Below the pieces are notes generated by a model that saw only the letters and a program-made list of their open reading frames with translations, was not told where the DNA came from and did no database searches. A DNA stretch of 64,000 bases, taken from Patellaria atrata CBS 101060 (taxonomy: Eukaryota). Positions 6,713-10,417 of this stretch are shown piece by piece. Where the stretch lies: the NCBI GenBank assembly GCA_010093705.1, contig MU006090.1, forward strand, positions 2,100,022 through 2,164,021. The letters run 5' to 3'. A program made the position numbers and the translations under genes. Each line of letters opens with the position of its first letter. Within the stretch, counting starts at the first letter, position 1.

Positions 6713-7303
6713 ATGCAATCCAAGATCTTCGCTGTTTTGGCTTTCGCTGCCGTTGCCCACGCCCAATTCCCACCGGCTTGCAGCGACATCCCTAAGTGAG
6801 CTTATACTTATCTCTGATTCATCAATCGAAAAACATACTAACCATAACTTAGCGCTTCCCTCATCTCTGCTGTCCTCCCCGTCATTCCAGCGAGCGCAAT
6901 CACCAACCCTACCGGCTTTGCTCAAGATGTTGCCTCTTCCTTCCAGGCTGGAGAGACCCCAACCTGGTTCTCGATGCTCCCATCTGACATTCAGTCATGC
7001 TTTGCCGCCGGCGCCATCGCTACCGAGATCCCTTCAAGCATCATGACCGTCACTGGCGATGCTACCATTCAAACTTCCACCGTCGTATCCACCGATGTAA
7101 TGACTTCAACTGGCGAGTCCACCACCGCGACCATCACCGAGGAACACACCTCTACAATGACTGATGTTGTCTCCAGCGAGACTGAGACCGACTCCGCTGC
7201 CGAAGAGACCTCCACCTCCACTGGCGGCGCAGCTCTCCCTACCGCTGTCATTGGCGCCGGTGTCGCTGGTGCATTGGGCTTCCTTGGCATGATTGCCTTG
7301 TAA
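6713..7303 (+). CDS. Small secreted Ser/Thr-rich GPI-anchored protein
   Basis: Signal peptide MQSKIFAVLAFAAVAHA, intron 6796-6852, S/T-rich stalk, hydrophobic GPI signal ...GAGVAGALGFLGMIAL. Confidence 0.85.
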
Positions 7304-7766
7304 ATAACTCTCACATGTGTTTTCATGTTGACGGGGTTCTAGCTGGTGACACTGGTTCGGTGAATTTGTCAAAGTCGATACAGGAGTATTGGCTTGGGGA
7401 ACGCTGTACAAATATGATTTGCCAAAATACTGGCCGAAAATTACTTCGAGACCCTTGAGGGTCTATGTCGTTAAATAATAAATTCTGGTGTTTGCCCCTG
7501 GTTTATAATCCCCCCGTATATTGCTGTTTCTTATTGCGTGAATATTGCCCATACCTAAGCTTACCTAAAATATGCTTGCTCAATTCTTTCCAACATGGCT
7601 CATAACAAAGCTGATATTTAAATTTGTAACCAATGTACCGTATTGTAGGTAGGGTTATCAATAAGGTATCTTCTTGACATCAAACGGTTGGTTACGGTAT
7701 GTTATTAGCTTGATGTTGCGTGATTAGCTCTTGTAGTCGGCCGTTTTCGCTTCGCGCCGCTAGTAG

Positions 7767-7772
7767 TATAAA
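7767..7772 (+). promoter_or_regulatory. TATA box of the snoRNA host transcript
   Basis: TATAAA about 135 nt upstream of the first donor site (7906). Confidence 0.5.
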
Positions 7773-7940
7773 GTCTTCACCTAGCTGCACCTCACTACAA
7801 CTCTGCAAGCTTCCTTTGCAACTTTACTGTTTCATCATGTTCGCTTCAATGTGCTATTCTATATGCTCTCTAGAAAGCTTTCAACATGCGCTGGCATGTA
7901 TAAAGGTATGAACCCCTCTTATCTACCTCTAAGTCTTTAC

Positions 7941-8018
7941 ATGATGAGCTTTCCCACGAACAATCCAAATCCTACAACGATCATGAAGGATTACCCACTT
8001 ACTCTAGAATTACTCTGA
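7941..8018 (+). ncRNA. Box C/D snoRNA 1 (D guide to 18S site equivalent to human Am159, SNORD45-like)
   Basis: C box ATGATGA 7941, D box CTGA 8015; CTCTAGAATTAC (8002-8013) is complementary to conserved 18S GTAATTCTAGAG; GAACAATCCAA (7958-7968) is complementary to LSU TTGGATTGTTC. Confidence 0.85.
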
Positions 8019-8175
8019 TATTCATACCTTCATTCGTAGACGCAAACTATCGGTCATAATCAATTGCTAACTACTATTTTGTGGATCAGATAACAGCCCG
8101 AGCTTAACAAGCCCACTCACCAGATTTTTTTTCTAAAGGTACGTCACCTCGTTCAATTATCTCATACATCTTTGG

Positions 8176-8260
8176 GTGATGATATTATGACTTTGGAAAG
8201 GCATTCCTCGACCTGAACCACACATGTCGAACCTGTCAATTAAGTTTCAGCCTTGTCTGA
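8176..8260 (+). ncRNA. snR41: Box C/D snoRNA 2, snR41-like (18S Gm1126 guide)
   Basis: C box GTGATGA 8176, D' CTGA 8213, C' ATGTCGA, D CTGA 8257; 16-nt guide TTAAGTTTCAGCCTTG complementary to 18S CAAGGCTGAAACTTAA. Confidence 0.88.
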
Positions 8261-8368
8261 CGCACATATTCCTCGTTCTCGCATCCTGAATACTTGTGGA
8301 TATCCCGCAACTAATTCTTTCCTAAACAGGTACATACCCACTTCAGATAACCTCGATCTCTTCCGTAC

Positions 8369-8494
8369 ATGACGAACACTTGAACGACAGGCGGACAGAA
8401 ATCTACTCTACGACGGAACGTCCGCTGAAAGCAAGGCGTACAAACCTTGTGGACGTTTTATTGCTGAGCTAGTTGCTGAGAACTCGTTACCTGA
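8369..8494 (+). ncRNA. snR70: Box C/D snoRNA 3, snR70-like (18S Cm1639 guide)
   Basis: C box ATGACGA 8369, guide CGACAGGCGG (one mismatch to 18S CCGCCCGTCG) before D' CAGA 8396, extra pairing GTACAAA 8438-8444 to adjacent 18S TTTGTAC, D box CTGA 8491; N+5 falls on the C1639 equivalent. Confidence 0.75.
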
Positions 8495-8613
8495 TCTACA
8501 CTGCACTCTGTTCAACACGATTTCTGTAGTATTCGTCGCGGGACACAAGGCTAATGCTCTCTTTGTCATAGGTATATATTATTTGTTTTTCTATTTTCAG
8601 TAGAACCATCCAC

Positions 8614-8698
8614 ATGATGATCACTATTCACACTGTTTGATCCGGATGCCTTGTAACGAGGGCATTCAGAGATGAACGTATAACACTGAAAATTCTGA
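8614..8698 (+). ncRNA. snR51: Box C/D snoRNA 4, snR51-like (25S Um2729 plus Um2724 guides)
   Basis: C box ATGATGA 8614; TATTCACACTG plus D' TTGA; ACACTGAAAAT plus D CTGA 8695; both complementary to 25S ATTTTCAGTGTGAATA. Confidence 0.85.
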
Positions 8699-8926
8699 TT
8701 TAATGAGGTATGTGCTAGTCACTCTATTCCAGGTTTCTCAGTTAACATGGACCTAGCCTGATTATACATGGTTCTTTGGCCAGCTTTTCTCTTTTTTCAT
8801 AGAGACTCTATCCGATATCATGCTGATTCATCCCAATCGTCGAATAGGTGATGCATACTTGCTCAAGTAATACTTAATCCATCATTCTGGTAAGTAAATA
8901 TTTCGTGTGATTATGTTCAGGCGTAC

Positions 8927-9006
8927 ATGATGATCTTAACTGTTCTATCTATGCTCTTTCCGAGATAAATCATTGACGAGCAAATCAAATCACCTTGGAG
9001 AACTGA
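8927..9006 (+). ncRNA. Box C/D snoRNA 5 (SNORD55/U55-like LSU Cm guide)
   Basis: C box ATGATGA 8927, D' CCGA 8960, C' TTGACGA, D CTGA 9003; TCACCTTGGAGA complementary to LSU TCTCCAAGGTGA. Confidence 0.85.
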
Positions 9007-9397
9007 ATGCTTTATCCTCCAATATTCTTTTCGTTTAGAGAAGTAGTCCGAAACTAATGTTCTGGATAGGCCCGACATCTGACAGATCGATAGCACGAGA
9101 TTTCGAATCATGTAAACTCATCTCTTAATTCCTGTTAGATTCAGTAAAATCAAAGAGAATATCAGTATCATAACATCATATATACCATTCAATGAACTCT
9201 ATGTGTCCTGCAGCTCAAATCCAAACCTTCAAAGTTCCACTTAATCTTTTTTATAGCCCAAATGATTCACATTTTTGTTACTCCAGTGACTCTATCCGCT
9301 CCATCGAATATATCTGCCACACTGTTAATTGTTCTTCCTTGAGATATATACCAATTCAGGATTTGTCATTAGCACCCAAGGCTTTCCCATCATTATC

Positions 9398-10417
9398 TCA
9401 TGCGTCTCCGGCGTTTAGTAAATCTGCCAAAGAGTCTAAGCACCTTCCTTGGCCATCATGTTGATGCGCAATCTCCAACAATGCCTTCCTAGTCCCTCCA
9501 ACTCGAAGCCCATAACCCTTCGGGCATGCCGTACCAATGTCGAATGACTTACATACGCTTCCCCGGTCTGAGAGGGACCGGAGTTCTTTCAACGCATTGC
9601 CCCAACGAGCTGGGCAAGAGAATTGCTCGGATCTCGAAGCAGCCACAGCGAACTGCAGGAGATCTCTCCCATCCAGTCTCGAATCTACACGGAGCTGTGA
9701 CCACAATTCCGCGCGTGCTTCGGCATCCACTCCAGGCGCAGACCTTTTCAGGCTAACTTTGTTCGCCTGCCCGATTGCATGCAGCGGATCCCAGTCACAA
9801 AGCACCGGCTGGCCAGTCTTCATCTTAACACTCATCCTGTCCTTGGAGAGAGTGAGATGAAGCTGTGTGATCTTCCCGTCCTGCAGTAGATCATGCCTGT
9901 GCAACATCATATCCTGGCGTTTTCTGGCAATCCATTCCCTCCTCTCTTCTTCCGGCACAGCATGTATACCGCAGAGGAAGCAGCAGCGTCCTAGCCGCAA
10001 TGACACCGTTAGTTTAGTCAGATACGCCGCCCTTGGAGACTTGAGGAAGGTGTCTACGGCCAGCTTGTGCGAGTATTCGTAGGGTGGGAGCGTGAAAGTG
10101 TTGTGGGCGTAATAGAACCCGAGAGTCTCCTTCCGCAGTTGGCGAGATGTTTGTAACATGGGAGGGACGCGTGAGAGGAGTGGGATCGGGTCGGGTGATT
10201 GGAGTGCTTGAGCGTAGACCTCATTGCGAAGTTCGCCGCGGAGGTCGAAGAGGCGGAAGATTGGGCCCGTGGGGTTGGTGGTCTCGTCCGCGACGACTTC
10301 GGAGGGATGAGCTGTCTTGATGCGCTTGGAGGGACGAACTCCTTCAGTATCGCCTGTCGATCTGGGCGGAAGACATTTGAGCTTGAGCTTAGTGCGATAG
10401 TCGCGAGGTTGAGACAT
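9398..10417 (-). CDS. F-box-like/2EXR-type fungal protein, paralog A
   Basis: FRLFDLRGELRNEVYAQAL...PPMLQTSRQLRKETLGFYYAHNTF signature. Confidence 0.75.
   Translation of the reverse strand: MSQPRDYRTKLKLKCLPPRSTGDTEGVRPSKRIKTAHPSEVVADETTNPTGPIFRLFDLRGELRNEVYAQALQSPDPIPLLSRVPPMLQTSRQLRKETLGFYYAHNTFTLPPYEYSHKLAVDTFLKSPRAAYLTKLTVSLRLGRCCFLCGIHAVPEEERREWIARKRQDMMLHRHDLLQDGKITQLHLTLSKDRMSVKMKTGQPVLCDWDPLHAIGQANKVSLKRSAPGVDAEARAELWSQLRVDSRLDGRDLLQFAVAASRSEQFSCPARWGNALKELRSLSDRGSVCKSFDIGTACPKGYGLRVGGTRKALLEIAHQHDGQGRCLDSLADLLNAGDA

Follow-up and report, generated by a model that had tools for sequence, protein, structure and literature searches.

Conserved zero-nucleotide exons between abutting snoRNA introns in a probable cluster III host gene of Patellaria atrata

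The host gene and its snoRNA introns

The window, namely the whole stretch of 64,000 nucleotides of Patellaria atrata DNA analysed here, most likely carries on its + strand, between 7.8 and 9.1 kb, the non-coding host gene of the fungal snoRNA "cluster III". A reading of the sequence from 7000 to 10000, combined with motif positions obtained by script, places five box C/D snoRNAs in this gene, one per intron. In the ORF list of the window, no + strand ORF of at least 60 aa was found to span the host-gene exons, and a + strand ORF at 7720-7911 overlies the putative first exon. The features are given below in their order along the strand, with a slash marking the splice cut within a motif.

7767..7772, + strand: TATAAA, candidate promoter element of the host gene, placed by motif position, with a putative role
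7906..8089, + strand: intron A, 184 nt; donor GTATGA, branch TGCTAAC (A at 8070), acceptor CAG
box C 7941-7947 and box D 8015-8018, + strand: box C/D snoRNA of intron A, from motif positions
8090..8138, + strand: exon 2, 49 nt, with the 3' end AAAG (script coordinates)
8139..8329, + strand: intron I, 191 nt; donor GTACGT, branch AACTAAT (A at 8314), acceptor CAG
8172-8262, + strand: snR41-like snoRNA Afu_455 in intron I; Rfam 59.8 bits, gathering score 48
8328..8331, + strand: first zero-nucleotide exon AG/GT, cut between 8329 and 8330 (sequence and script)
8330..8571, + strand: intron II, 242 nt; weak donor GTACAT, branch GGCTAAT (A at 8554), acceptor TAG
about 8365-8497, + strand: box C/D snoRNA of intron II; box C ATGACGA 8369-8375, box D 8491-8494, from motif positions
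8570..8573, + strand: second zero-nucleotide exon AG/GT, cut between 8571 and 8572 (sequence and script)
8572..8847, + strand: intron III, 276 nt; weak donor GTATAT, branch CTGAT 8823-8827 (A at 8826), acceptor TAG
from about 8610, + strand: snR51/snR67-like snoRNA in intron III; box C 8614-8620, Rfam below gathering scores
8708..8756, + strand: nested intron B, 49 nt, GTATGT...TTAAC...CCTAG, inside the snR51-like snoRNA
8848..8889, + strand: short exon, 42 nt, beginning with GT; AG/GTGATG with the cut between 8847 and 8848, strong donor GTAAGT at 8890
8890..9069, + strand: intron C, 180 nt; donor GTAAGT, branch AACTAAT (A at 9057), acceptor TAG
8923-9009, + strand: snoRNA Afu_294 in intron C; Rfam 49.3 bits, gathering score 43

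By position, the first and the last of these introns are the "U45-associated intron A" and the "U55-associated intron C" in the text of Luo et al. 2013 (PMC3596301). The snR41 model itself, under a permissive Rfam threshold, gives 22.4 bits on the Afu_455 unit, which is below its gathering score. For the unit of intron III (8610-8710), the snR51 model gives 29.5 bits with a gathering score of 44 and the snR67 model 22.6 bits, also below gathering; the snR51 alignment, at its sub-gathering score, covers the full length of the model, and both guide stretches align. No Rfam family was found at the permissive threshold for the units at 7941-8018 and 8369-8494, and the C and D boxes are present in both; the former, the snoRNA of intron A, occurs with 75-86% identity in many related loci (blastn, among the matches listed). 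Since the search for an Rfam snR70 match to the intron II snoRNA gave none at E up to 10, the snR70 label of this snoRNA is by its position in cluster III only. The same snoRNA (8369-8494) contains the conserved stretches ACAGGCGGAC and, about 40 nt further on, GCGTACAAAC, which look like the two halves of one rRNA-complementary guide parted by an insert. In the neighbourhood of the host gene, a 339-aa ORF on the - strand (9398-10417) resembles, by language-model features only, Ascomycota hypothetical proteins of the F-box / 2EXR / DUF7730 type, and its Atlas model is poor (pLDDT 0.50).

The 3' part of the cluster merits a careful description, as the third intron ends elsewhere than would seem at first sight: by homology this intron runs to 8847 and holds the nested 49-nt intron at 8708-8756. 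More specifically, intron B sits between the guide TTTAATGAG (8699-8707) and the box D CTGA (8758-8761, in CCTGA), and since the guide is followed by GTATGT...CCTAG and then by CCTGA, box D is restored only on removal of intron B. The homologue in A. fumigatus, Afu-277, has been reported as a 100-nt cDNA with the 18S target Am97, a target that depends on the downstream box D, and the cDNA length and the target suggest that the mature snR51-like snoRNA is the spliced product. When loci were anchored on the guide, 34 of 39 showed the interruption at this position and the other 5 an unbroken guide, and 33 of the 34 interruptions start with GT (among the matches listed). In the five uninterrupted loci (L007, L028, L041, L063 and L071) the guide directly abuts box D and intron B is absent; as all five keep AG/GT at junction 1, the zero-nucleotide exon there seems to be older than intron B. 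Another acceptor for intron III, CATAG at 8798-8802, was considered and set aside, having no upstream branch motif; the acceptor at 8847 is preferred because a branch motif is present and because its spacing matches that in other loci.

Conservation of the zero-nucleotide exons

The sequence-only reading had proposed that three snoRNA-bearing introns abut with no exon between them, and the junction strings and coordinates on which it relied are exact. Intron I ends with ...AACTAATTCTTTCCTAAACAG (also written ...CTAAACAG) at 8329, and GTACAT runs from 8330; intron II ends with ...GGCTAATGCTCTCTTTGTCATAG (also written ...TTGTCATAG) at 8571, and GTATAT runs from 8572. Because AG directly meets GT at both places, introns I, II and III (8139-8329, 8330-8571 and 8572-8847) follow one another without any exon. 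The branch-like adenosines at 8314 and 8554 are likewise where they had been noted, 14 nt before the AG at the first junction and 16 nt before it at the second. Over the full 64 kb, the + strand has five copies of a composite motif that joins branch, acceptor and donor, CTRAY-N4-25-YAG/GTA, the two junctions included, and the - strand has two.

To compare the junctions across fungi, metagenome contigs were scanned with an exact 19-nt stretch consisting of the snR41-type guide and box D, which yielded at least 113 loci, at least 80 of them with 1.5-kb flanks. Compared by blastn with positions 7700-9300 of the window, many loci show the same order of five snoRNAs (among the matches listed); the aligned pieces are 70-100% identical and the longer snoRNA matches mostly 71-88% (blastn, among the matches listed), and between the window and the 113 loci blastn gave no alignment of the spacers between snoRNAs (among the matches listed). 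Within the 113 loci and the window, the core motif of the middle snoRNA lies at most 330 nt downstream in 88 of 114 sequences (among the matches listed). No spliced form was found among the 26 sequences without this motif, which are all non-fungal, truncated or variant (among the matches listed). Loci sharing more than half of the 8-mers of spacer 1 were collapsed, leaving a non-redundant set of 62 sequences, the window and 61 others (among the matches listed). For the second junction the denominator is 42, the number of loci, among the matches listed, where both snoRNA borders could be set. A junction was scored as conserved when YTRAY lies 5-40 nt upstream of AG/GT, with 200 dinucleotide shuffles as the control. 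Since an exact 19-nt match served to select the loci, and since they lack phylogenetic independence, their counts do not stand for independent events.

In this sample the branch motif and the AG/GT are kept at both junctions, in spacers that are otherwise unalignable (62 loci, among the matches listed). At junction 1, in spacer 1, the two elements occur together in 61 of 62 loci (shuffles: mean 2.9, max 8), and an AGGT of any kind in all 62; at junction 2, in spacer 2, the corresponding numbers are 35 of 42 (shuffles: mean 2.4, max 7) and 41 of 42, in both cases among the matches listed. The bases around the cut are also constrained, for position -3 of junction 1 is a pyrimidine (C or T) in 61/61 and its position +3 an A in 60/61, and when both junctions are pooled +3 is an A in 91/96 (among the matches listed). 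Moreover, the AG and the GT can be separated in a test that is blind to AGGT, in which a strict CTRAY is located, the nearest AG lying 6 nt or more downstream is taken as the acceptor and only then the next two bases are checked: of the predicted acceptors, 58 of 64 in spacer 1 and 27 of 48 in spacer 2 have GT as these two bases (among the matches listed). The distances point in the same direction. From box D to the AG/GT the median is 71 nt at both junctions, and from the AG/GT to the next box C it is 44 nt at junction 1 and 46 nt at junction 2, as compared with 33-64 nt between the ordinary intron I donor and its box C (all among the matches listed); such spacing fits real splice sites flanking intronic snoRNAs.

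The exceptions are mostly failures of the branch rule itself. At junction 2, 7 of 42 loci miss the rule and 6 of these 7 keep AGGT (among the matches listed): in L028, L040 and L063 a CTAAY stands immediately 5' of the AG/GT, in L041 and L077 the branch motifs are variant, and in L048 the AG/GT lies about 60 nt past its sole CTAAC. Similarly in spacer 1 of L069 the AG/GT is present and the canonical branch motif absent. The sole group without AGGT at junction 2, among the matches listed, is the L012 group of four near-identical loci, where TAG precedes GCACAA, which may be a GC donor at an exon of zero length.

In view of the rarity of the motif in the window, the shuffles and the AGGT-blind acceptor test, a chance origin of the junctions is excluded. 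Both zero-exon junctions are real and conserved, and they are ordinary for this fungal group.

Donor strength and the order of splicing

The internal donors are weak in a particular manner. A G at position +5 is found in 14/61 donors at junction 1 and 11/35 at junction 2, or 25/96 pooled, in contrast with 49/54 for the intron I donor and 32/33 for the intron B donor of the same genes (all among the matches listed). The position of the intron B donor is fixed by the guide, and it is thus picked regardless of its own sequence; Fisher's test of intron B against both sets of zero-exon donors gives p ~1e-13 for +5G, a value that is only indicative as the loci are not independent. Another regularity is seen in the exon that precedes intron I, which ends in AG in 54/54 loci, has an A at -3 in 51/54 and ends in AAAG in 43/54 (among the matches listed), as compared with a mean of 0.8 and a maximum of 4 for AAAG in shuffles. 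The exon bearing this end (8133-8138 in the window) is otherwise unconserved, and in a control the exon before the last-intron donor ends in AG in only 2/23 loci (among the matches listed).

For 5' splice sites a trade-off between exonic and intronic positions is known. Since the acceptor forces an AG in front of each zero-exon donor, this trade-off suggests that selection on +5 and +6 is relaxed there. The A-rich exon end, when carried along, would better each rebuilt donor and would therefore favour a 5'-to-3' order, as in published ESTs. The internal donors may be usable only once splicing has brought the conserved A-rich exon end up to them. Taken together, the GT that nearly always follows the acceptor, the weak +5 and the AAAG end favour real internal donors, and the same three patterns suggest how a 5'-to-3' order could be imposed.

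The mechanism best supported by the conservation found here and by published intermediates in relatives is a stepwise recursive removal from 5' to 3' with one snoRNA per intron, and we hold it to be very probable. Two exons that once lay between the snR41-, snR70- and snR51-type introns would have shrunk to nothing, so that the acceptor AG now directly meets the next donor GT. Exon 2 would act as the 5' exon handed from ratchet point to ratchet point: in a first step its AAAG end would be joined to 8330 and rebuild the donor AAAG/GTACAT; this donor would remove intron II and rebuild AAAG/GTATAT at 8572; and the latter would in turn remove intron III. Every step would free a separate lariat with one snoRNA, and after debranching exonucleases would presumably trim the lariat to the core protected by the snoRNP. 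The processing of intronic snoRNAs is established, and the trimming step is based on it. For Patellaria atrata we infer from the sequence, in which the layout and its strong conservation are directly seen, that splicing follows this order and that the internal donors are used. Two sequencing runs near-identical to the window consist of DNA-like contigs, and they cross the locus with no splice joint.

The sequence-only reading had allowed for recursive splicing or a nested order, either of them releasing each snoRNA. The stepwise, recursive release gains from the conservation described above and from the EST and RT-PCR results published for related fungi. The nested order does not match the published ESTs, since according to the text of Luo et al. 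(PMC3596301), intron I alone is removed in 18 of their 42 ESTs, introns I and II in 14 and all three in 10, and none has intron II or III gone with intron I retained. The authors conclude on stepwise 5'-to-3' splicing and note an alternative with one donor and three acceptors, and it is on this question, stepwise internal donors versus one donor with three acceptors, that our comparative counts bear.

This alternative is the strongest of the rivals, though we consider it improbable. It holds that a single working donor, the exon-flanked one at 8139, serves any one of the acceptors 8329, 8571 and 8847, that the internal GTs are unused and that lariats with several snoRNAs are cut by other nucleases. 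As Luo et al. (PMC3596301) state in their text, their 42 ESTs and RT-PCRs fit it equally, and the internal donors indeed have no +5G in 71/96 (among the matches listed). However, an unused GT is not expected to stand directly after 58/64 and 27/48 independently predicted acceptors or to keep an A at +3 in 91/96 (both among the matches listed), nor to lie at a distance from the next box C that matches the real intron I donor; the kept GT, the +3 A and the spacing are therefore evidence against unused GTs. The conserved AAAG exon end, moreover, also fits a rebuilt donor.

A second rival, which we regard as very unlikely, assumes hidden short exons, with the true donors slightly downstream of the junctions. 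In the window a second GTACAT at 8365-8370, overlapping box C, could play such a part, and would define a 35-nt exon at 8330-8364. Against this, an extra GT near box C exists in only 3/52 loci, and in 1/52 a GTRNGY resembling the consensus lies in the stretch from the junction to box C (both among the matches listed), and a donor at box C would leave the snoRNA without its 5' flank. An equally slight chance is given to the rival in which exonucleases and an endonuclease process an unspliced polycistron, in the manner of S. cerevisiae, and the motifs that resemble splice sites are relics in decay: the internal donors are weak, and Saccharomyces handles the same cluster without splicing according to the texts of Luo et al. 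(PMC3596301) and Donovan et al. (PMC5033589), but branch, -3 pyrimidine, AG, GT and +3 A are kept in nearly all loci with the surroundings diverged beyond alignment (among the matches listed), and related Euascomycetes have spliced ESTs in the text of Luo et al. 2013.

Besides the two zero-nucleotide exons on which the stepwise mechanism is built, the end of intron III possibly forms a third, facultative ratchet point at the cut between 8847 and 8848. An AG/GT with a branch motif is present here in 22 of 36 loci, about 60% (shuffles: mean 3.7, max 8), and 16 of these 22 have a consensus donor 36-48 nt downstream (both among the matches listed). Taken jointly, the idea that a weak-donor ratchet may enforce the order and that there may be a third, facultative ratchet with a recursive exon of 36-48 nt in about 60% of loci is put forward tentatively, with the odds in our estimation somewhat against the whole.

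Comparison with known systems

The layout itself already has a history. Luo et al. 2013 (PLoS One, PMC3596301) analysed three conserved fungal snoRNA clusters, and as their text describes, cluster III (snR41-snR70-snR51) misses its two interior exons in an "intron-intron-intron" arrangement in all Euascomycetes examined, has the U45- and U55-associated introns added, one at each end, and has snR51 split between its antisense element and box D by intron B, which holds no snoRNA. The window is alike in its probable gene order, in the two lost interior exons, in having a snoRNA intron at either end and in intron B within the snR51-like snoRNA; in comparison with that text there is no essential difference, and it is a further member. 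Both the layout and the stepwise splicing have thus already been described for the same gene cluster in filamentous ascomycetes. The novelty that the sequence-only reading had seen in "a clean double ratchet point in this lineage" is accordingly not borne out, because the double zero-exon layout is published, ancient and near-universal in filamentous ascomycetes for this gene, and is found in nearly all of the 62 loci (among the matches listed). In the running text of Luo et al. 2013 and Donovan et al. 2016, figures and supplements aside, we found no mention of the weak-donor pattern, the AAAG end or the third ratchet. The weak-donor and exon-end pattern and the possible third ratchet would then be small additions and a modest refinement.

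Outside the filamentous ascomycetes, related arrangements are reported by Donovan et al. 2016 (PMC5033589), whose text names the zero-exon case recursive splicing and gives recursive or nested splicing for the Candida clade and D. hansenii. In D. hansenii the exon between snR41 and snR70 has size zero (PMC5033589, citing Luo), and with this zero exon, a non-coding host and one snoRNA per intron it is like the window. In the Candida parapsilosis group, on the other hand, a 1-nt exon remains at this place, whereas in the window the exon is exactly zero at both junctions; and in cluster II of the same text the introns overlap by one base, whereas those of the window do not overlap. For Neurospora crassa, the text of Liu et al. 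2009 (PMC2780460) deals with snoRNA clusters and RT-PCR of their hosts.

Zero-length exons are also reported from other fungal genes. By spliceosome profiling, one was described in S. pombe SPNCRNA.445, the host of snoRNA61 (Chen et al., in the text of bioRxiv 10.1101/226894), and another in the protein-coding BOT1 of C. neoformans (in the text of bioRxiv 10.1101/224170). Like the window, these two are fungal cases in which the 3' splice site adjoins a 5' splice site and is conserved among relatives, and SPNCRNA.445 is a snoRNA host as well. However, they are different genes, and in the accounts given there their 5'-P and 3'-OH ends and their branches were measured, whereas the window is known from sequence alone. 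It can be said for the present case that a non-coding snoRNA host can do without internal exons, and that a back-to-back acceptor and donor suffice for one snoRNA per lariat.

Another known class of complex intervening sequence is the stwintron of filamentous fungi, an intron that interrupts a splice signal of another intron, as the text from the Flipphi and Fekete group (PMC8469720) defines it. Stwintrons are similar to the window in being complex Pezizomycotina intervening sequences that need consecutive splicing reactions. A stwintron reading of the window nevertheless fails, as every donor, branch and acceptor element is unbroken in the genomic sequence: introns I to III are joined end to end, and the nested intron B splits none of the signals.

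Recursive splicing in metazoans splits up very long introns at sites with strong GTAAGT donors, and its ratchet points and RS-exons are known from Drosophila and vertebrates (Duff 2015, Sibley 2015). The likeness lies in the AG/GT, which regenerates a donor once the upstream part is gone. The differences are that the introns of the window are 190-280 nt long, that the purpose would be one snoRNA per lariat, and that the donors are mostly without +5G. At junctions 1 and 2 a competing donor of the RS-exon type is absent, with GTRNGY before the next box C in 1/52 loci (among the matches listed); at junction 3 such a donor, GTAAGT, is present in the sequence 42 nt downstream. To sum up, the window is another member of a known arrangement and not a new principle. 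Its third junction (8847/8848), with the 42-nt exon and the strong downstream donor, resembles a metazoan RS-exon, and a third ratchet of this kind, if true, would be a compact fungal counterpart of the metazoan RS-exons.
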